Source: Candidatus Eiseniibacteriota bacterium (lineage in GTDB: Bacteria > Eisenbacteria > RBG-16-71-46). From it: DNA of 64,000 nucleotides. A model generated the notes under the pieces. It was not told where the DNA came from. It worked only from the letters and a program-made list of their open reading frames with translations, and searched no databases. Position numbers and translations under genes: made by a program. The number at the start of each line of letters is the position of its first letter. The first letter of the stretch is position 1. Positions 9,993 through 21,178 of the stretch are shown here, in pieces. Location of the stretch: the NCBI GenBank assembly GCA_963707915.1, contig OY970178.1:832001-896000 (forward strand). Reading direction: 5' to 3'.

Positions 9993-12134
9993 TCACGCGC
10001 TCCACATGTAGGCCCCGTACGAGGCGTCGGGCACGGAGAAGCGCACCAGGTCCGCGGCGGGCAGGCTCTCGACCGGCACGCCGCCCTGCATGAGCTGCAC
10101 CAGCAGGTCCACGTTGTCGCCCGCCTTCAGCCCCAGGCCCGCGAACGGCAGCCCCAGCTCGAGCACGGTCCCGACGTGGCACTCGCAGCCCGGCATCGGC
10201 GCCGCCGCGGCGCCATCGGCGCGACAGACGACCGGACGGGCGCCCGGCTCGAGCCCCTGGATCATGACCCGGACCGGGTGCGGCGCCAGGAAGTCCAGCA
10301 GCAGGTCGTACTCCGCGCCCGGGGGCGCGTTCGAGACGAAGTCGAGCCGCAGGTAGAAGCGCGCGTCGTCGTAGCCGAAGTACAGGTCGCGCCCGATCCC
10401 CGCGTCGCGGTGCATCGAGCCGCCGCCCGCGCCCAGCAGGTGACGCCCGGCCGCGTACCACTCGTAGAAGTGCGTCGGCCGGCCGTCGATCGTCGGGCGC
10501 ACGAAGCCCAGCGGCTGCGTGGCCAGGTCCGGCCGGTGGGTGAAACGCGAGACCGCGACCTGCAGCCAGCTCGGAGCGGGCAGCCCGGCACGCTCGTAGA
10601 CGGCCTGCAGGTGCTCGCGGAAGATGCGGTCGAAGAGCCCCTTGTCCTCGGTGTAGTGGTCCTCGCCGAACCACCAGAACCAGTCCGACCCCTCGGCCGC
10701 GTAGAGCGACTCCCACGCGCCCGGACAGTCCTCGGGCGTCCGGCGCGCCTCGACCAGCGCGCGGCGCGCGCGGGCCAGCAGCTCCCAGGCCCGGTTCTTC
10801 TCGGGATGCCCGATCCAGATGTGGAAGTCGGCGTCGATCCAGGAGCCGGAGTGCAGGTCGCGCAGCTCGGCCGCGGCGGGCGCGGCGGCCAGCACCTCGG
10901 AGGGCGTCACGGTGCGGATGTCGGGCGCGGCCTCGAGCGCGCTGTAGAGCGCCTCCAGGAACGGTCCGCCGTCCGCCGGGTAGTTCTCCCAGCAGTTCTC
11001 GCCGTCGAGGATGACCGAGACCAGCGGACGGCGCCCCGGGACGGACTGCTCGCGGGCGATGCGACGCAGGCGCCCGATGAAGTCGGCCACCGCCTCGGCG
11101 GTCTCCCAGTGGTAGTAGACGAAGCCGATGCGGTCCGAGAGCTCCCGATCGCGGAAGAAGAAGTCCACCGGCCCGGCCGCCGTGCGGTAGCGCCACGGCT
11201 GGTAGAGCGCCGGGTGGTGGCGCTCCCCCGGCGGCAGCGACTGCCACAGCACGCCCTCGTCGGTGGCGAGCCAGCGCACGCCGGCGCGGGCCGCCATCTC
11301 CACCGCCTCCGGGCTCACGCTGCCCTCCGGCGGCCACATCCCCGCCGGGCGGACGCCGAAGGCGCGCGCGTGCCGGTCGAACGCGCGCTGGATCTGGCGC
11401 TCGGCGTCCTCCGGAGCGGCGAACAACTCGCCCGGCATCGCGATCTCGGGGCGCGCGCGCCGCGCCGCGCGGGAGTCCACCAGCAGCGGCAGGATCGGGT
11501 GGTAGTAGGCCGACTCCGACAGCTCGACCTGCCCGCGCTCCGCCAGCGCCCGGTAGGCCGGGATCACCCGGGCGACGATGCGGGAGTAGAGCGCCAGCAG
11601 GCCGTCACGGTGCTCCTCGAGGAAGTCCCCGTTCGAGGCGACCGCCGCGGCCGCCTCGGGCTCCCCGAGCAGCACCGGGTCGAGCCAGGCGAGCAGGAAC
11701 CAGCACTCGAGCGCCAGGATCTCGGTGAAGGTCGGCTCGCTGGCGCCGCTGCTCCGCGCCCGCGCGACCCGCAGGCCGAGCGCCCGGTACCGCGGCCAGC
11801 GCTCCAGCGCGTGCCGCGGGGCGGCCGAGCAGCGCGAGAGGACCGTCGCGCGCTCACCGTCGGTCAGCCCCTCGACCGGCCGGGCAAGCAGGTCGAACAG
11901 GCTCTCGCGGCCGCCGGCCGCGGCCTCGTCGAGCTGGTCCAGCAGCGAGGGCACGAAGTTGAACGTGGCGTGCACGCCCGGGTGGGCCTCGAGGTGCAGG
12001 GCCATGTCCAGGTAGTCCTTGGTGGCGTGCAGGCGCACCCACGGAAGCAGGGCCCGGCCCTCGCGGGGACTACGGTAGTCCGGTTGGTGGTGATGCCAGA
12101 GGAATAGCAGGTCGACCGGGGGCTGCTCGCTCAA
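9993..12134 (-). CDS. Glycoside hydrolase family 57 (amylopullulanase/alpha-amylase-like)
   Basis: WHHHQPDY, LPWVRLH, YYHPILPLL, MWPPEGS (nucleophile), ILDGEN (acid/base), AEGSDWFWW. Confidence 0.95.
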   Translation of the reverse strand: MSEQPPVDLLFLWHHHQPDYRSPREGRALLPWVRLHATKDYLDMALHLEAHPGVHATFNFVPSLLDQLDEAAAGGRESLFDLLARPVEGLTDGERATVLSRCSAAPRHALERWPRYRALGLRVARARSSGASEPTFTEILALECWFLLAWLDPVLLGEPEAAAAVASNGDFLEEHRDGLLALYSRIVARVIPAYRALAERGQVELSESAYYHPILPLLVDSRAARRARPEIAMPGELFAAPEDAERQIQRAFDRHARAFGVRPAGMWPPEGSVSPEAVEMAARAGVRWLATDEGVLWQSLPPGERHHPALYQPWRYRTAAGPVDFFFRDRELSDRIGFVYYHWETAEAVADFIGRLRRIAREQSVPGRRPLVSVILDGENCWENYPADGGPFLEALYSALEAAPDIRTVTPSEVLAAAPAAAELRDLHSGSWIDADFHIWIGHPEKNRAWELLARARRALVEARRTPEDCPGAWESLYAAEGSDWFWWFGEDHYTEDKGLFDRIFREHLQAVYERAGLPAPSWLQVAVSRFTHRPDLATQPLGFVRPTIDGRPTHFYEWYAAGRHLLGAGGGSMHRDAGIGRDLYFGYDDARFYLRLDFVSNAPPGAEYDLLLDFLAPHPVRVMIQGLEPGARPVVCRADGAAAAPMPGCECHVGTVLELGLPFAGLGLKAGDNVDLLVQLMQGGVPVESLPAADLVRFSVPDASYGAYMWSA

Positions 12135-12161: not shown

Positions 12162-12827
12162 TCAGCGCGGCGCGGCGGCCAGCTCTGCCCGCAACACGCG
12201 GGCGCGATTCGCGTAGGAGGTCTCCCCGAACTCGTCGACCAGCCGCTTCAGCCTCGCCTCGGCTTCGTTCGGCTGGTTGGTCTGCCGGTAGCACCGGGCG
12301 GCCGCGTAGAGGAACTCCGCCGACGACTCGCGATCGAACTTGCCCACCAGTCCCTCGTAGACCGGCGCGGCCTCCTTGAACTGCAGGTCGCTCTCGAGCG
12401 CATAGGCGAAGCTGCGGCGCACGGCGTCGGCGATGAGTCCCGACTTCTGCTTCGCCAGGTAGGTCCGGTACTCCGCGACCGACTCCTTGAACTTCCCGAG
12501 CCAGAACAGGTCGTCCCCCGCCAGCCGGTGCGCGTCGATGCCGCTCGGGCTGTTGGGCCACTGCTCGGCCACCTGCCGCGCGACGGGGAGCGAGCGGTCG
12601 TAGGCGCCCTGCCAGAAGAACAGGTTCGCCTCGGCCAGCTTCCCGGCCGCCTGTTCCTCGTCGGCCGCGCGCGCACGCAGCGTGAAGAAGGCCCCCACGC
12701 CCACCACGGCGATCACTCCCAGGCCGATGAGGATCATCCGCCCGTACTGCGCCCAGCGGGAAGTAATCGAGTCCAGGAGCTTTGCTCCCGGATCCTCGAG
12801 TCGAGCTGACTCTCGCTCTAACGTCAA
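12162..12827 (-). CDS. Membrane-anchored TPR protein (YfgM/CpoB-like)
   Basis: Single N-terminal TM helix followed by TPR-like helical repeats. Confidence 0.7.
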   Translation of the reverse strand: MTLERESARLEDPGAKLLDSITSRWAQYGRMILIGLGVIAVVGVGAFFTLRARAADEEQAAGKLAEANLFFWQGAYDRSLPVARQVAEQWPNSPSGIDAHRLAGDDLFWLGKFKESVAEYRTYLAKQKSGLIADAVRRSFAYALESDLQFKEAAPVYEGLVGKFDRESSAEFLYAAARCYRQTNQPNEAEARLKRLVDEFGETSYANRARVLRAELAAAPR

Positions 12828-13046: not shown

Positions 13047-14105
13047 TCACGGCGCGCAGCGCACGCACGCCACCGCCCCGTGCACGCGCACCAGCATCTC
13101 CGCCCGGGCCCCGCACGACGGGCACGTCGGCAGGTCGGGGCGGCCCCGCGCCACGTCCACCAGGCTCTTCAAGCGCACGTGCACCGCCCCCAGCCGAAGT
13201 TCCTGCTCCAGGTCCGCGACCGGCCAGGCCCACTCCGACAGCCCCCACACGCGCATCTCCGTCCGGATCGCCCAGCGCCCGCGCACCTCCGCCGCGCGCC
13301 GGTCCCACTCGAGCTTGATCGACGTGCTGTCGCCCTGCTCGATCTCCACCTCGTCCGCGCTCGAGGTCCGGCGCCGCAGCCTCTCCTGCTCCTCCTCCAG
13401 CCGGGCGGTGAAGAACGCCCCCAGCCGCTCGAGCTCGCCGTCGCGCAGCCGGCCCATCTGCTGCTCCCACTCCTGCTCCCGCTCGCCCAGCAGGCGCTCG
13501 AAGTGGGCGCGCGTGACCTCCATCCAGCGCGCGCGCTGCTCCGGCTCCAGTTCCTCCTCCATCTGGTAGAGACCGTCGCGGGAGCGCACGTCCGGCACCT
13601 CGGGTGCGCTGTGCCACTCGAGCAGTTCGCCCGTGGGCCCGATCAGGACCACCCACGGCTCCTGCCAGGGCAGGCCGCCCCAGCGCGTCGCCACCGCGTG
13701 GAACGAGACACGTCGCTCGTAGCGCACCGGTCCCAGCCGGGCCGGCCCCCACGACAGCCCGCGCAGCTTGCAGACCGTCGCCAGTCCTTCCTCGCTCACC
13801 CCGGGCACGTGCGCCAGGGCCGTGCGCCGCGTGAGCACCGGCACCTCCATCGCCGCCTCGAGGATGCGCCGGCCGCCGCTGCTGCCCGGGGCGGTGAACC
13901 ACGCCCCGCGCGGCAGGGTCGCGCGCAACGGGTCGAAGACGAGGCGTACGCGCTGGCGGCGCCAGCGGCGACGGAGCGGTTCCGCCAGGTCCACCTCCCA
14001 GTCGCCACGCGCGGCCGGCTTGACCGTGCAGCCCTCGGACTCGAGCCAGTGCCCCACGAACTCGCGCCACTCCGGCGGCAGGCTGGGGGGCGGCGCGGGC
14101 GACAT
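13047..14105 (-). CDS. Hypothetical YqhG-like protein with coiled coil and C-terminal zinc ribbon
   Basis: ATG after AAGGAGG (alternative GTG at 14192 coupled to the helicase stop); E/R-rich coiled coil; CPSC...CVRC; follows a YqhH-like SNF2 gene. Confidence 0.65.
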   Translation of the reverse strand: MSPAPPPSLPPEWREFVGHWLESEGCTVKPAARGDWEVDLAEPLRRRWRRQRVRLVFDPLRATLPRGAWFTAPGSSGGRRILEAAMEVPVLTRRTALAHVPGVSEEGLATVCKLRGLSWGPARLGPVRYERRVSFHAVATRWGGLPWQEPWVVLIGPTGELLEWHSAPEVPDVRSRDGLYQMEEELEPEQRARWMEVTRAHFERLLGEREQEWEQQMGRLRDGELERLGAFFTARLEEEQERLRRRTSSADEVEIEQGDSTSIKLEWDRRAAEVRGRWAIRTEMRVWGLSEWAWPVADLEQELRLGAVHVRLKSLVDVARGRPDLPTCPSCGARAEMLVRVHGAVACVRCAP

Positions 14106-14188
14106 GCCGGTCCCCTCCTTCGTCCCCGGCCCGCGGCGCGCGTCGGCGCTCCGGGCCACCGAGCCCTTGCGGTCCCGCCGCGGGGGGC

Positions 14189-16132
14189 TCACGCCTCGTC
14201 CTTCTCGGTCACCGACGGGAACAGCCAGTCCTCCGAGTCCTTCTGCTGCTGGTAGAGCCGGTGCGCCACGACCAGGTGCTGGGCCAGTTCGGCGAACTTG
14301 CGCTTGCGCATCCGCGGGTTGGTGGACTCCGTCCAGCGCCGGAAGACCTCGTCCTCGAACGAGCCTGCGGACTGCCACGCACCGAGGATCTCCTCCATCT
14401 CGCCCACCACCAGCTCGAACATGCGGATCTTGCGCTCGAGGATCTCGAGCACGTACGCCTCGATGGTGCCGCGCGCGGCCAGGTTGATGACGCGGACCGG
14501 GTGGCGCTGCCCCAGGCGGTGGACGCGCCCGATGCGCTGCTCCACGCGCATCGGGTTCCACGGCAGGTCGTAGTTGATGACGATGCGCGCGAACTGGAGG
14601 TTGCGCCCCTCGCCGCCCGCCTCGGTGCTCACCAGCACCGGCGAGACCGTGCGGAAGTGCTCGAGCGCCTCCTCCTTCTCGCGCCAGCCCAGCTCGCCGT
14701 GGAAGACCGACGGCTCCACGCCCGAGGCCACCAGCGCGGCGACGATCGCGTCCTGGGTGGCGCGGAACTGCGTGAAGATGATGGCCTTCTCCCCGCCGAG
14801 CCCGCCCAGCACGCGCTGCAGCGTGCGCAGCTTCGACGGGATCGCCGAGACCGCCTCCGCGCGCGCGGCCAGGATCTTCAGGCGCCTCGGGTCGAGTCCG
14901 TCGGGGCGCGCCGTCAGCCGCTCGAGCGTGGCGCGCGCCGCGGCCCAGGACGAGCCCATCTCCTTCTGCAACACCATGAGCGTGAAATAGTGCGGGCGGC
15001 CGGGCCCGCCGTGCTCGCCGTGCACCGCGTCGGCCACGAACTCGCTCACCTGCCGGTAGAGGCCGCGCTCGGCGGCGGTCTGCGCCACCCAGCGGGTCTC
15101 CACCTTGCGCGGGGCGAAGACCAGGTCCGTGTCGCCGCGCCGCGTGCGGATCATGACCACCTTGAGCAGGTTGCGCAGCCGCGGCGTGTTGCGCGGCGTG
15201 CGCTTGTCGTGACCGGAGAGGAAGTCGCGGCGGAACTGCGAGAAGGTGCCCACCGTCCCGGGCCGGGTCAGCGTCACCAGGTTGTAGAGCTCGCGCATGT
15301 CGTTCTGCACCGGCGTGGCGGTGCAGAGCAGCAGGTAGCGCGGGTTCAGGTCGTTCACGAACCGCCAGCCCAGCGTGAGGTGGTTGCGCAACCGGTGGGC
15401 CTCGTCCACCACCACCATGTCGTAGTTGGCGCCGCGCACGCGGCGCCGGTGGCGCTCGTGCCGGGCGGTCTCCAGCGAGGAGATCACCAGCGGGTGGCGG
15501 CCCCACTGTCCCACCGGGCCGCGCGAGACCACGAAGTCGAGCTCGAACTTCTCCCACAGCTCGGCCCGCCACTGCTCGCAGAGCGACGCCGGCACCAGCA
15601 CCAGCACGGTCCGCGTCGCGCCCCGCAGCAGGTACTCCTTGATGACGATCCCGGCCTCGATGGTCTTGCCCAGCCCCACCTCGTCCGCCAGGATGGCGCG
15701 CCCGTTGAGGTCGCGCATGACCTTCACGCAGGCGGTGATCTGGTGGGGGAAGCGCTCGACCCCCCGCAGCGAGTCGAGCGAGATGAGCCGGTCGGTGCCC
15801 GCCCAGCCGGACCAGCGCTCGGCCTGCGAGTGCAGCTCGAAGCGCGGCGCCGGCACCGACCGGCCGCACTGCCAGGACTCCAGCAGCCGGTCGCCCTGCG
15901 CGTGCCAGGCCCGGGTGGCGGCGACGCTCCTTCCCGGCGTCGGCGCGGGCGCGCCCGCCTCCACCACGGTCCACTCGCGCTGCGCCGAGAGACGACGGAG
16001 CTGGCCGTCGAAGACGACCTCCAGCACCTCGCGGCCGCGATCGGTGTGGACCTCGACCACCAGGCCCTCGCCGAACTGCGGATGGCGCAGCCGCTGGCCG
16101 ACCTCGTAGGCGAGGGGCTTCGTCAACTCCAC
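14189..16132 (-). CDS. SNF2/RapA-like ATPase (YqhH-like) with N-terminal Tudor-like domain
   Basis: LADEVGLGKT, DEAH, TATP, STEAGGEGRNLQ, QRIGRVHRLGQ; N-terminus VGQRLRHPQFGEGLVV; GTG after GAGGAGG. Confidence 0.9.
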   Translation of the reverse strand: MELTKPLAYEVGQRLRHPQFGEGLVVEVHTDRGREVLEVVFDGQLRRLSAQREWTVVEAGAPAPTPGRSVAATRAWHAQGDRLLESWQCGRSVPAPRFELHSQAERWSGWAGTDRLISLDSLRGVERFPHQITACVKVMRDLNGRAILADEVGLGKTIEAGIVIKEYLLRGATRTVLVLVPASLCEQWRAELWEKFELDFVVSRGPVGQWGRHPLVISSLETARHERHRRRVRGANYDMVVVDEAHRLRNHLTLGWRFVNDLNPRYLLLCTATPVQNDMRELYNLVTLTRPGTVGTFSQFRRDFLSGHDKRTPRNTPRLRNLLKVVMIRTRRGDTDLVFAPRKVETRWVAQTAAERGLYRQVSEFVADAVHGEHGGPGRPHYFTLMVLQKEMGSSWAAARATLERLTARPDGLDPRRLKILAARAEAVSAIPSKLRTLQRVLGGLGGEKAIIFTQFRATQDAIVAALVASGVEPSVFHGELGWREKEEALEHFRTVSPVLVSTEAGGEGRNLQFARIVINYDLPWNPMRVEQRIGRVHRLGQRHPVRVINLAARGTIEAYVLEILERKIRMFELVVGEMEEILGAWQSAGSFEDEVFRRWTESTNPRMRKRKFAELAQHLVVAHRLYQQQKDSEDWLFPSVTEKDEA

Positions 16133-17535
16133 AGCGCGGCCTCCTCGCCCGGCGCGGGGATCCTCACCTCGGCCCCCACCCGCTCGCGCAGCAGGCCGGC
16201 CAGCGTCTCCGCGGCGCCGGCCTCGCCGTGCACCAGGAAGATGCGCCGCGGCGCGGGATCGAGCCGGCCGACCCAGTCGAGGATCTCGGCCTGGTCGGCA
16301 TGGGCGCTGAAGCCTTCCAGCGAGGTCACCTCGCAGAGCCGCCGGGTGGGCTCGCCGAAGATGTTCACGACCTCGGCGCCGTCGCGCAGGCGGCGCCCCA
16401 GCGTGCCCTCGGCCTGGAAGCCCACGAACAGCACGGTGTTCTTCGGCTCGCCCAGCCCGAAGCGCAGGTGGTGGAGGATCCGGCCGCCTTCGCACATCCC
16501 CGAGCCGGCGATGATGATGCACGGCTCGGTGCGCTCGTTGAGCGCCTTGGACTCCTCGGCGCTGCTCACGTAGCGCAGCCGCGCGAAGCCGAAGGGCGCG
16601 CCGCCGTGGTTCACGAAGGCGTCGTGCGTCTCGGCATCGAAGCACTCGGGGTGCTGCCGGTAGACCCCGGTCGCGACCCGCGCCAGCGGGCTGTCCACGA
16701 AGATCGGGACGTCGGGCACCGCGCGGCGGCCGATCAGCTCGTGCAGGGTCGCCACCAGCTCCTGGGTCCGGCCCACCGCGAACGAGGGCACGATCAGCCT
16801 GCCCCCGCGCCCGAGCGTGCGCGTCGCGGTCTCCTGCAGCGCCCGGACGTTCTCCTCCTCGGGCGGGTGCAGCCGGTCCCCGTACGTGCTCTCCAGCACC
16901 AGCACGTCCACGCCCGGAGGGACGTCCGGGTCGCGCAGGATGGGCCGCCGGTAGCGCCCGAGGTCCCCCGTCATCCCCAGCCTCAGCGTGCGCCCGCCGG
17001 CGCGGAACTCGAAGGTCGTGATCGCCGAGCCCAGGATGTGGCCGGCGTCCCAGAACTCGACCTCGACGCCGTCGGCCAGCGGCCACGGTTCCCGGTAGTC
17101 GTGCGTCTCGAAGCGCTCGAGCGTCGGCACCACGTCGGCCGGCCGGTAGAGCGGCTTGCGGGGCGCCTGCTGCTTCGCCCGCCCGCGCTTGTTCACGTGC
17201 TCGAGATCGCGTTCCATCAGGAACGCGCTGTCGGCCAGCAGCGGACGCGCGAGGTCCGCGGTGGCCGGGGTGAGGTGGATCCTGCCGCCGAACCCCTGGC
17301 GGACCAGCGTCGGGAGGTTCCCGCTGTGGTCGAGATGCGCGTGCGAGAGCACCACCCCTTCGAGCTCCGCGGGCGCGAAGGCGAACGTGCGGTTCACCCG
17401 GTCCGCGTCCTCGCGGTGGCCCTGGTAGATCCCGCAGTCGAACAGCCAGGAGCGGGCGCCGAAGCGCACCAGGTGGCGCGACCCGGTCACGGTGCGGGCC
17501 GCGCCCTGGAAGGAGACGGCGAGGGGCAGCGTCAT
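16123..17535 (-). CDS. Metallo-beta-lactamase/beta-CASP ribonuclease
   Basis: VTGS, DCG, HAHLDHSG, AGHILGS, GDLG, ESTYG, GMCEGGRI, FSAHAD, VHGE. Confidence 0.93.
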   Translation of the reverse strand: MTLPLAVSFQGAARTVTGSRHLVRFGARSWLFDCGIYQGHREDADRVNRTFAFAPAELEGVVLSHAHLDHSGNLPTLVRQGFGGRIHLTPATADLARPLLADSAFLMERDLEHVNKRGRAKQQAPRKPLYRPADVVPTLERFETHDYREPWPLADGVEVEFWDAGHILGSAITTFEFRAGGRTLRLGMTGDLGRYRRPILRDPDVPPGVDVLVLESTYGDRLHPPEEENVRALQETATRTLGRGGRLIVPSFAVGRTQELVATLHELIGRRAVPDVPIFVDSPLARVATGVYRQHPECFDAETHDAFVNHGGAPFGFARLRYVSSAEESKALNERTEPCIIIAGSGMCEGGRILHHLRFGLGEPKNTVLFVGFQAEGTLGRRLRDGAEVVNIFGEPTRRLCEVTSLEGFSAHADQAEILDWVGRLDPAPRRIFLVHGEAGAAETLAGLLRERVGAEVRIPAPGEEAALWS

Positions 17536-18191
17536 CAGAGGCTCGCGTAGAAGATCAGGCCGGCCGAGGCCTGCAGGTCGTGGTTCACGCCGTGGCCGAG
17601 GAAGACCGCGTGGTAGCGCGCCCCGAAGTCGAAGGCCATGCTGGTCCAGAAGAAGCGCTCGACGCCGACCCCGACGCTGAGGTACGTCCCGTCGCTCAGC
17701 GGGAACTCGTGCTCGCCGTCGTTCAGGCCGAACGTCGCGCGCGCGATCCCCCCGCCCACGCTCAGCATCTTCACCACCTTCGTGCGGGTGCCGAACATCT
17801 GGTAGACGTCCAGGCCGTAGAGGCCGAGGTGGACCCGCTGGTAGGCGAACTCGTCCTGCGGCTTCATGATCTTCCCGTCGAACAGGTCGACCTGGTCCCC
17901 CGGGCGCACGTCGAGGCCGTGGCTCTCGAACGACAGGCCGATGGCGCGTTCGTAGCGCATCCGGTAGCGGAGGCGCACCGCCATGCCCGGACCGCTGCCG
18001 AACTGGTCGCCCACGGTCCCGTTGTCGAGCAGCGTGCCGTAGAGGCCACTGAGGCCGACCCCGACCTGGCCGGGCCGGGGCAGCACCACCACCGACTTGG
18101 CGTGCGCCGTGCCGGCCGCGACGGCCCCCAGCGCCGCGCCGACGACGAGCACCACCGCGGCCATGGTCCGGATGTGAACGGTACTGCGCAT
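17535..18191 (-). CDS. Putative outer-membrane beta-barrel protein
   Basis: Signal peptide ending AHA; alternating amphipathic beta-strands; C-terminal strand ASAGLIFY. Confidence 0.6.
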   Translation of the reverse strand: MRSTVHIRTMAAVVLVVGAALGAVAAGTAHAKSVVVLPRPGQVGVGLSGLYGTLLDNGTVGDQFGSGPGMAVRLRYRMRYERAIGLSFESHGLDVRPGDQVDLFDGKIMKPQDEFAYQRVHLGLYGLDVYQMFGTRTKVVKMLSVGGGIARATFGLNDGEHEFPLSDGTYLSVGVGVERFFWTSMAFDFGARYHAVFLGHGVNHDLQASAGLIFYASL

Positions 18192-18219: not shown

Positions 18220-19182
18220 TCAGGCTCGAGGGTGGAAGGTGCGGTGCACCTCCCGGAGATAGGCCCGGTCCAGATGAGTGTAGATCGCGGTCGTCGCCAC
18301 CGAGGCGTGGCCCAGCAGTTCCTGCACCACCCGCAGGTCGGCGCCGCCGACCAGCAGGTGGGTGGCGAACGAGTGCCGCAGCAGGTGCGGGTGGACGCGC
18401 CCGGCGATCCCCGCGGCGCGCGCGTGGTCCCGCAGGATCTTCCAGAATCCCATGCGCGAGAGCCCGCGTCCACGCGCGTTGGCGAAGACGAAATCGTGGC
18501 GCTCGCGCCGCACGAGGAGCGGACGCGCGCGCTCGAGGTACCCGCGGAGCTCGCGTTCGGCGGCGCGGCCGAAGGGCACCGAGCGCTGCTTGTCGCGCTT
18601 CCCGGTCACCGTGACGAGCCGGTTCGCGAGGTCGAGGTCGGCACGCTTCAGGCCGCACAGCTCCGAGACGCGCAGCCCGCTGCCGTAGGCCAGCTCGAGC
18701 ATCGCGCGGTCGCGCATCCGCAGCGGCTCGTCGCCCGCCGGCTGGGCCAGCAGCGTCGCCACCTCCTCGACCGACAGCGCGCGCGGCAGGCGGCGCTCGC
18801 CGCGGGGCGCGGGCAGGTCGTCCAGCGGTCCGGCCGCCTTCCCCGCGCCGCGCGCGAGCCAGGCGTGGAAGCCGCGCAGCGCCGAGCGCCGCCGCGCGAC
18901 GGTCGCGCCCGAGCGGCCCTGCTTCAGCAGCCGCGCGAAGTAGCCGTCCACGAACGTGGAGCTCACCTCGCCCCAGCCCGCGAGCCCGTGGTGGACCGCG
19001 AAGGCGCGGTAGTCGGTGAGGTCCCGGGCGTACGCGTTCACGGTGTTGTCGCTGAGCCGGCGCCCGGCGCGCAGCTCCTCCAGGAAGCCGTCGAGCGGGC
19101 CGTCCAGCGCCGGCAGCACGGCGGGCCGCGGACGCCTGGCGGGACGGCGGGCCACCGGCGGCGCCGCCAGCTTCGGACTCAT
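18220..19182 (-). CDS. xerD: Tyrosine recombinase XerD
   Basis: [55 protein letters not shown] terminus. Confidence 0.88.
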   Translation of the reverse strand: MSPKLAAPPVARRPARRPRPAVLPALDGPLDGFLEELRAGRRLSDNTVNAYARDLTDYRAFAVHHGLAGWGEVSSTFVDGYFARLLKQGRSGATVARRRSALRGFHAWLARGAGKAAGPLDDLPAPRGERRLPRALSVEEVATLLAQPAGDEPLRMRDRAMLELAYGSGLRVSELCGLKRADLDLANRLVTVTGKRDKQRSVPFGRAAERELRGYLERARPLLVRRERHDFVFANARGRGLSRMGFWKILRDHARAAGIAGRVHPHLLRHSFATHLLVGGADLRVVQELLGHASVATTAIYTHLDRAYLREVHRTFHPRA

Positions 19183-21066
19183 GCCGGCCTCCCCCGCGAC
19201 CCGGCCGCCGCGCCGACGGCGGGCGCGCCGCGCGTCCCGGCAGGTCCCGTCGCCGGCCGGCCGCGCAGCCGCGCGGCCACGCGCTCCGCCAGCGCAGGCG
19301 GGACGTGCGCCTGCCGCGCGATCTCCTCCGGCCCCGCTCCGGCCAGCGCCGCGACCGAGCCGAAGGCCTTGAGCAACGCCGCCCGGCGTGCCGGCCCCAC
19401 GCCCGGCACGTCGTCCAGCGCGCTGGTGAGCCGGGCGCGCCCGCGGAGCTTGCGGTGGTAGGCGAGCCCGAAGCGGTGGGCCTCGTCGCGCAGCCGCTGG
19501 AGCGCGCGCAATGCGGGGCTGCGCCGCGGCAATGTCAGTGGCGCGCCCGACTCGCGCACCACGGTCTCCTCGCGCTTGGCGAGCCCGATCAGCGGCACCG
19601 GCCGGGTCGCCACCCGGTCGAGCGCGGCGCGCGCCGCGCGGACCTGGCCCTCGCCGCCGTCCACCATCACCAGGTCGGGTCGCGGCTCCTCCCCCGACTC
19701 GACCCGCGTCCAGTAGCGCTCGACCCCCTCGGCGATCATGGCGAAATCGTCGGGGCCCGGCCGGCGGACGCGCATGCGCCGGTAGAGCCCGGTGCGGGCC
19801 CGCCCGTTCTCCGACGCCACGACCGCGGCCACCGCGCCCTCGTCCCCGAGGTTCGAGATATCGAAGCACACCATCCGCCACGGCGGCTCGGCGAGCGCCA
19901 GCGCCTTCTGCAGCTCCAGCAGCTCGGGTGAGAAGCGCGCGCGCCGCCCGGCCGCGCGCGCCGCCCGGTCCTCGAGCGCGTGCGCCGCGTTGCGCTCCGC
20001 CGAGCGGAGCAGGGCGAGCGCGCGGCCGCGGTGCGGCACCCGCAAGTCGACCCGGTGGCCGGCGCGGGCGCCGACCGCCTCGAGCGTCACCTCCGCGTCG
20101 GCCGGAAGGACGGCCACGACGATCCGCGCCGGCACGGCCGCGCCCGCGAGGTAGTGCTGCGCCAGGAACTGCTGCAGGAGCTCCTCGTCCCCGAGGGTGT
20201 CCGCGCGGTCCAGCACGCGCGTCTCCTTGCCCACCACGCGCCCCCCGCGCAGCAGCAGCGCCGCGACCGCCGCGTGGCGGCCGTGGCGCGCGAGCCCCAG
20301 CACGTCGGTGTCGCGTCCGGTCGGGCTCACCACCCGCTGCGGCACGCGCGCCCGCTCGAGCAGTGGCGATCTGGTCGCGCAGCCGTGCGGCCTCCTCGTA
20401 GCGGCGGTCCCCGGAGGCATCTCCCATGCGCTCGCGCAGCGCGTGGAGCAACTCGACGTCGCGTCCGGTGAGGAAGAGCAGCAGCCCGTCGACGATGGCG
20501 CGATACGACTCCGGGGTCACGCCCGAACGCGTCGTGCACGGCCCCGCGCAGCGCCGGATGTGGTAGTAGAGGCAGGGCCGGTTCGCGCGGCGGTACTCCT
20601 CGAAGTTGCGGCAGGTCCGCACCGGGAAGATGCGCCGCACCTCGCGCAGCGTGCGGCGCAGGTGCTTGACATCGGTGTACGGTCCGAGATAGCGCGCCCC
20701 GTCGCCACGCACCTGGCGGGTGACCGACAGGCGCGGGTATTCCTCCTGCACGCTCAGCCGGACGTAGGGGAACGACTTGTCGTCCTTCAGGAGCACGTTG
20801 TAGTGCGGGCGGTGCTGCCGCACCAGGGTCGCTTCGAGCAGCAGGGCCTCGGCCTCGGTGTCGGTGAGGATGCTGTCCAGGTCCACCGCCTCGGCCATCA
20901 ACTCGCGCAGGCGGGGGTGCGAGTTCTCACCGTTGAGGTAGGAGCGGACCCGGGAGGACAGGCTCTTGGCCTTGCCGACGTACAGCACCCCGCCCTGGGG
21001 GTCCTTGAAGAGGTAAACCCCCGGCAGAGCGGGCAGATTCTTCACTTTGTCGCTCAGAGCGCTCAA
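19179..21066 (-). CDS. uvrC: Excinuclease ABC subunit C; split by a +1 frameshift near 20363 (probable sequencing error)
   Basis: GIY-YIG (PGVYLF, YVGKAK) and UVR motif EEAARLRDQI in one frame; CFDISN, PDLVMVDGG, LRDEAHRF and HhH in the next frame. Confidence 0.93.
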
Positions 21067-21178
21067 AAGGCCTCCCCAGGGACCACGGAGGGTCGCTCGA
21101 AGAAGACACGGTACACCTGCCGCCGCCACCCTCAAAGCGCCTTCTTCGCTCCGACCGCCTCCGCCGGCCCGCCCCCGC

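Follow-up and report, generated by a model that had tools for sequence, protein, structure and literature searches.

In the 64,000-nucleotide stretch analysed here (the window: positions 832,001 to 896,000 of contig OY970178.1, assembly GCA_963707915.1, from a Candidatus Eiseniibacteriota bacterium of the Eisenbacteria lineage RBG-16-71-46), three adjacent genes on the minus strand encode a 470 amino acid (aa) beta-CASP RNase of the TTHA0252 type (16123-17535), a 647 aa SNF2 ATPase with a GTG start (14189-16132) and a 381 aa partner protein with a coiled-coil and a C4 zinc ribbon (13047-14192). The GTG start of the SNF2 gene overlaps the end of the beta-CASP gene by 10 bp, and the SNF2 stop and the partner start share GTGA (a 4-bp overlap), the open-reading frame (ORF) coordinates and junctions agreeing with the arrangement described in a first-pass annotation of the sequence. 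Gene starts are predictions throughout the locus; a later ATG at 14105 is a possible alternative start for the partner, and the VSP/MSP partner start that overlaps the SNF2 stop is repeated in orthologues. Third-position GC values of 0.97 (beta-CASP), 0.98 (SNF2) and 0.96 (partner) indicate that all three ORFs are coding; GC content of the genome as a whole is ~73%. The first-pass annotation had treated the three genes as one system, a split RapA-like translocase with an RNase. Our comparisons separate the parts of that proposal: the three genes are not conserved as one system, but the SNF2 and zinc-ribbon pair is conserved and probably forms a RapA/HepA-type Swi2/Snf2 ATPase, split into two subunits, that recycles RNA polymerase, with the RNase as a facultative neighbour.

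The SNF2 protein matched Pfam SNF2-rel_dom (1.9e-33) and Helicase_C (8.1e-23) and carried the GLGKT, DEAH, TATP and QRIGRVHRLGQ motifs, and its best match among PDB sequences was RapA (E 3.3e-36). The AlphaFold2 (AF2) model, with a predicted local distance difference test score (pLDDT) of 82.0, comprises an N-terminal barrel, a helical linker (78-121) and two lobes. In a VIA alignment, model residues 81-645 were placed on residues 110-698 of RapA (8t0l_F; Z 24.9, root-mean-square deviation (rmsd) 6.4, 511 aligned); no other entry in the structural match list aligned over as many residues. The protein had been described as an intact SNF2 ATPase ending after the second lobe, which holds: the core motifs are present and the model stops at RapA residue 698. 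E. coli RapA (HepA; PDB 6bog, 8t0l, 8so8) likewise has an N-terminal beta-barrel domain preceding its motor. The barrel in the window protein is made up of five strands at residues 14-57 (pLDDT 83-89; domain ~10-57), and a Y.VG.R..H..FGEGL.V.V motif in the N-terminus is preserved across the phylum. Its earlier assignment as a Tudor domain is borne out by the five-stranded barrel in the model, but less so by Pfam, as the isolated N-terminus matched PcrA_UvrD_tudor weakly (E 4.9e-4, 20.3 bits) and below the cut-off of 23.9. One further SNF2-like ORF (G000:C1:1590220-1591812, open frame 1087 aa) is the sole other clear motor paralogue in the genome.

From its N-terminus onwards, the partner model (pLDDT 82.6) shows a disordered basic stretch (1-35), an alpha/beta domain, a helical hairpin of 90 residues (217-306) and a beta-sheet domain, followed by a C4 zinc ribbon in which the four cysteines (C357-x2-C360...C376-x2-C379) are invariant in 33 sequences, matching the initial reading of a coiled-coil protein that ends in CxxC..CxxC. 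Relatives of the partner are all annotated as hypothetical. A Foldseek search of the PDB, which the first-pass annotation had suggested, returned E. coli RapA for all four top matches (E 2.4e-4 to 7.6e-3, probability 0.93-1.00), and a VIA alignment placed model residues 30-306 on RapA 701-953, the Spacer and C-terminal domain (Z 8.1, rmsd 8.9, 138 aligned). The SNF2 model covers RapA as far as residue 698 and the partner model takes over from ~700, so that the two genes meet at a point where RapA is one chain. The sequence methods, though weak, agree with the structural register on RapA: hhalign weakly matched partner-family positions 7-85 to RapA 713-795, a partner-family profile searched against 177,635 PDB sequences ranked RapA chains 3rd-7th (E 0.011-0.019, RapA 746-794), and Pfam RapA_C matched one of 21 partner-family members (E 0.0097). 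The stretch of RapA matched by the partner family includes D744, a residue of the Spacer; the Spacer and the N-terminal domain NTD-A of RapA are reported to touch RNA polymerase at its beta' zinc-binding domain, without which the RapA ATPase is hardly activated (PMC8501970).

A complex prediction with full-length SNF2 and partner residues 36-381, another check proposed at the outset for the ATPase and partner, gave a score of 0.81, whilst the best of three controls scored 0.00. Among solved complexes, 116 of 157 attained this mark, as did 2 of 215 mismatched pairs. Contact agreement between runs was at least 81%, partner pLDDT was at least 82, and the predicted interface involves motor residues 73-126 and parts of lobe 1. 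This pass may reflect likeness to RapA, which has been solved as a single chain, rather than provide independent evidence. Taken together, the fold matches, the junction at RapA ~700 and the passed complex prediction argue for the split RapA-like translocase that had been proposed from the sequence.

In such an enzyme, the 647 aa subunit would provide a Tudor-like RNA-polymerase-docking barrel and the ATPase core, whilst the 381 aa subunit would be the counterpart of the RapA Spacer and C-terminal domain, with an additional zinc ribbon, and would pack on lobe 1 and the linker of the motor. If the pair works as E. coli RapA does, the heterodimer would bind RNA polymerase close to the RNA exit channel, held there by the Tudor barrel and the partner, and ATP-driven DNA translocation by the SNF2 core would dislodge post-termination or stalled polymerase for reuse. 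The RNase, where it is co-transcribed, may clear released or nascent RNA, but would not be a required component.

The pair also differs from RapA, and several observations weigh against a RapA-type assignment. E. coli RapA is one polypeptide of ~970 aa, whereas the window encodes two, of 647 and 381 aa. The SNF2 protein has a single Tudor domain of the PcrA/UvrD type in place of the double N-terminal domain of RapA, with no match to Pfam PF18337/PF18339 at E 0.01, and the partner adds a beta-sheet domain and the C4 zinc ribbon (~310-381), both absent in RapA. Both window proteins fall below the Pfam RapA_C and NCBIfam RapA thresholds; the NCBIfam model (NF003426) scored the SNF2 protein at 181 bits against a cut-off of 576. 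INO80 and ISWI cores, though over shorter stretches, gave Z scores of 26-27 for the SNF2 core, above the 24.9 of RapA. The partner itself had no match in Pfam, NCBIfam or PDB sequences, and Pfam RapA_C (PF12137) was without a match in the whole genome at E up to 10. Its structural match is moderate, with a template modelling (TM) score of 0.23-0.25 beside the Z score of 8.1 and an rmsd of 8.9 Å, and part of it is made up by the long helical hairpin, a common element. The hhalign probability was 9.6% with one RapA sequence and 3.9% with 13 enterobacterial RapAs, a set of very low diversity; RapA homologues among the 120 matches listed were all at least 78% identical, which left no diverse RapA_C profile for comparison. 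Homology of the partner to RapA is therefore not established by sequence and rests mainly on predicted structure, and RNA polymerase binding and recycling activity are inferred from analogy with the E. coli enzyme.

The two genes remain paired in several bacterial phyla. Among 151 genomes of the phylum (a set used for all such tallies, which includes the unpublished genome G026, on which alone no claim rests), the partner family was found in 146. In all close Eisenbacteria loci with flanking sequence, in 20 of 20 class-level loci, and in 17 of 17 loci with an upstream flank from a distant lineage (GC content 0.35-0.58), the partner is immediately preceded by the SNF2 gene. That lineage, for which the nearest named relative is a Moorellaceae protein, is probably Bacillota. 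A metagenome scan with one family alignment (A5) gave no matches, a second alignment (A6) did, and a partner profile search recovered 228 representatives at E 0.001. Some of these partner relatives have a source label of Eisenbacteria, Riflebacteria, Planctomycetota or Moorellaceae; Thermodesulfobacteriota are indicated as further carriers by the ESM Atlas. In one complete chromosome (G020, L016/L087), the RNase, SNF2 and partner genes are spread over several frames with internal stops, apparently because of indels in the assembly or because the block as a whole has decayed.

Many distant partner relatives are longer, at 570-770 aa (P0169, P0179, P0217 and others), with 250-400 residues beyond the zinc ribbon; Pfam searches of 20 and then 95 distant representatives found no domain in these C-terminal extensions. 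P0217 contains a long run of repeated CxxC zinc-ribbon-like units, and P0175 (500 aa), in which a Helicase_C domain is joined to the partner N-terminal region, is possibly a fusion or else a product of read-through in gene calling.

The partner had first been called YqhG-like, a label that stands by way of its distant relatives, though not for the window protein itself. Four of 95 distant relatives passed the Pfam YqhG cut-off of 25 bits (26.4-27.6 bits, profile positions ~100-244), which ties the pair to YqhH(HepA)/YqhG of B. subtilis; the window partner had no match to YqhG (PF11079) at E 0.01, and a search of the whole genome gave no match at E up to 1. Among ESM Atlas clusters that bear a Pfam domain, the one nearest to the partner is also YqhG (score 0.83), which we treat as a lead only. 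In B. subtilis, where we take yqhH to adjoin yqhG as stated in the first-pass annotation, a short SNF2 ATPase gene is, as here, followed by a small partner gene. The window partner differs from YqhG (a 258-position model) in being longer, at 381 aa, in carrying the zinc ribbon and in lacking the PF11079 match. B. subtilis YqhH has been named HepA/RapA and placed among translocases that interact with RNA polymerase (PMC7385302). Our literature searches on yqhH/yqhG and RapA found no description of YqhG or the partner family as a RapA fragment.

The RNase gene differs from the pair in its distribution. Its product matched Pfam Beta-Casp (9.7e-41) and RMMBL (4.9e-18), and gave a full-length match (E 4.4e-83) to Thermus thermophilus TTHA0252 (PDB 2dkf, 3iek). 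All catalytic motifs are common to the two proteins, the alignment to 2dkf retaining HxHxDH (LSHAHLDH), GH, GDLG, ESTYG, SAHAD and LVHGE. The residues read from this alignment correspond to metallo-beta-lactamase (MBL) motifs 1-4 and to motifs A and B of beta-CASP enzymes; an RMMBL domain is present, and motif C is His, as the first-pass annotation had noted of a beta-CASP enzyme with all motifs intact. The window RNase is ~40 residues longer than TTHA0252, with an insertion after motif 2, its gene sits with a RapA-like pair, and its enzyme activity is predicted from sequence. The MBL/beta-CASP/RMMBL core is also common to archaeal FttA/aCPSF1 and to Cas14 of type VII CRISPR, but the window protein scored well below the cut-offs of both families: 405.5 against 800 bits for Cas14 (NF045584), covering profile positions 3-426 of 612, and 293 against 580 bits for aCPSF1, where the match begins at profile position 176, so that the N-terminal KH region is missing.

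To compare the position of this gene between lineages we counted only loci with at least 1.5 kb of upstream sequence. The RNase occupied the slot directly upstream of SNF2 in 43 of 50 close loci, in one of 19 class-level loci and in none of 13 loci from the distant lineage. A phylum-wide search found it in 142 of 151 genomes, yet it lies beside the pair only in two of the tool-assigned families (labelled f1-f18), f1 and f10, where its distance to the partner is one gene-length (2.0-2.3 kb) in f1 and in 10 of the 14 f10 genomes with places listed. In the other 15 families, the RNase was within 5 kb of the partner in 0 of 55 genomes with both places listed, and on shared contigs the two genes are separated by 189 kb to 3.5 Mb. 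Elsewhere its neighbours are surface and sugar genes (He_PIG, YfhO and UDP-GlcNAc 2-epimerase), in at least two recurrent contexts. At E 1e-30 the RNase was unmatched in nine of 151 genomes, eight of which match the partner family, six of these in f1. The proposal of three genes as one conserved system is thus not supported, and linkage of the RNase to the SNF2 pair in other genomes, on which that proposal had been made to depend, was largely absent. The window RNase is a phylum-wide housekeeping RNase that here adjoins the pair in an operon but does not accompany it everywhere.

The two families with the RNase in place are nevertheless an argument for a closer relationship, in which all three proteins form one machine where they are co-located, the motor evicting polymerase whilst the RNase degrades nascent or R-loop RNA in the manner of a torpedo. 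In quick, midpoint-rooted trees built from 22 selected genomes, with f10 represented by a single genome, f1 was sister to f3 in the SNF2 tree (support 100) and f10 lay apart, so that the state of the slot needs two changes, forced by well-supported branches, and an identical slot is filled in two non-sister families. In the RNase tree, a 99-supported branch split the f3 copy from the f1 copy, and the grouping of f1 with f10 had a support of 3; one or two entries of the RNase into the slot are possible on this topology. The slot is filled in most close loci and most f10 genomes, as counted above, and the genes are translationally coupled here through their 10-bp and 4-bp overlaps. Precedents are the torpedo nucleases RNase J1 and FttA/aCPSF1, and Xrn2, which is aided by the RapA-related TTF2 (PMC8501993), and a preprint links RapA to R-loop prevention (bioRxiv 10.1101/2024.09.28.614012). 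Set against this are the 15 other families in which the RNase is elsewhere (0 of 55 genomes within 5 kb), the lack of an RNase in the slot in 18 of 19 class-level loci and in all 13 loci of the distant lineage, the unrelated surface and sugar genes that the RNase adjoins elsewhere, and the eight partner-bearing genomes among the nine without an RNase match. Overlap is not specific to the triad either, since the start of the RNase is likewise overlapped by the stop of an unrelated signal-peptide gene (TGATG; 17535-18191, minus strand) and the uvrC and xerD-like genes further upstream overlap too; moreover, recombination via conserved flanks could explain the shared RNase position without selection for adjacency. 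We consider a three-protein machine unlikely on balance, and any cooperation of the pair with the RNase is putative. Its most specific form, a CPSF73-like RNase recruited to a split-RapA operon in two non-sister families to give a bacterial torpedo nuclease with a Swi2/Snf2 motor that evicts polymerase and destroys nascent or R-loop RNA, the zinc-ribbon subunit bridging to RNA polymerase or the RNase, is unlikely too; were it true, eukaryotic Xrn2 with TTF2 and archaeal FttA would have a functional analogue in bacteria. For such a bacterial pathway, the facultative linkage of the RNase offers a lead and nothing beyond that.

RapA is known almost solely from the single-chain E. coli enzyme. If the split-RapA assignment of the SNF2 and zinc-ribbon pair holds, many bacteria would assemble a RapA machine from two genes, and the unannotated partner, including Pfam YqhG (function unknown), would be the missing Spacer/C-terminal module that contacts RNA polymerase. 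YqhG-like proteins would thereby gain a testable function, and the pair would offer a natural separation-of-function system for the activation of RapA by RNA polymerase. Given the added zinc ribbon and the Tudor domain of the PcrA/UvrD type, docking may differ from that in E. coli.

The surroundings of the locus bear on two further explanations. All genes of the block are on the minus strand and run in the order uvrC, xerD-like, signal-peptide protein, RNase, SNF2, partner, TPR, GH57. The xerD-like gene (18220-19182) encodes an XerD/XerC-type tyrosine recombinase (Pfam Phage_integrase, 3e-48), and its ATG overlaps the uvrC stop (ATGA). The gene at 17535-18191 encodes a 218 aa protein with an N-terminal signal peptide and without a Pfam match, possibly a small outer-membrane beta-barrel, and is kept upstream of the SNF2 gene in many families. 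Downstream, a 221 aa tetratricopeptide repeat (TPR) protein (12162-12827) directly follows the partner in nearly all Eisenbacteria loci, and a GH57 glycoside hydrolase (9993-12134) lies downstream of the partner in most. Across the phylum, uvrC, xerD, (signal-peptide protein), SNF2 and partner keep this order. A promoter and terminator scan found no promoter-like sites and one terminator-like site, against 2.0 expected from shuffles.

This fixed position downstream of uvrC-xerD, together with the PcrA/UvrD type of the Tudor barrel, would fit a pair that acts mainly in DNA repair or replication-transcription conflict, as an accessory to transcription-coupled repair, and the excerpts of a study on UV resistance and B. 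thuringiensis yqhH (PMC10054049) and of a preprint on RapA and conflicts following DNA damage (PMC12871841) lie in the same direction. Inheritance alone can keep gene order within one phylum, however, and UvrC was matched in 0 of 21 loci of the distant lineage, where the pair persists. The genome also encodes a full Mfd elsewhere (1009.6 bits, above the cut-off), and according to a passage in PMC8501970 the deletion of RapA leaves UV sensitivity unaltered. A primary role in repair is, in our estimation, quite improbable.

A nuclease-helicase anti-phage defence system, which the first-pass annotation had offered as its alternative, is extremely unlikely. The SNF2 protein gave partial PADLOC and NCBIfam matches to BrxHI of BREX, DrmD of DISARM, DpdE of Dpd and ZorD of Zorya, but these matches cover the generic SNF2 core common to all of them and are far below the curated cut-offs (DrmD 235 of 950, DpdE 228 of 500 and ZorD 84 of 1500 bits), with no companion defence genes, and PADLOC had no match for the RNase or the partner. 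The distribution is that of a housekeeping pair, found in 146 of the 151 genomes of the phylum and always at a syntenic position flanked by uvrC, xerD, TPR and GH57 genes. The GC content shows no island, in line with the earlier remark that an island signature was lacking, and the xerD-like gene belongs to the conserved synteny and is no mark of an integrated element.

Within the same block, uvrC (19179-21135) is broken into two frames near 20363. One frame contains the GIY-YIG and UVR domains, the other the RNase H-like endonuclease and HhH domains. Compared with the locus L021, there is a single additional base in the region of the UVR motif (CAGATCGCCACTGCTC vs. CAGATCGCCATGCTC), and the break is either a genuine frameshift or an assembly error.

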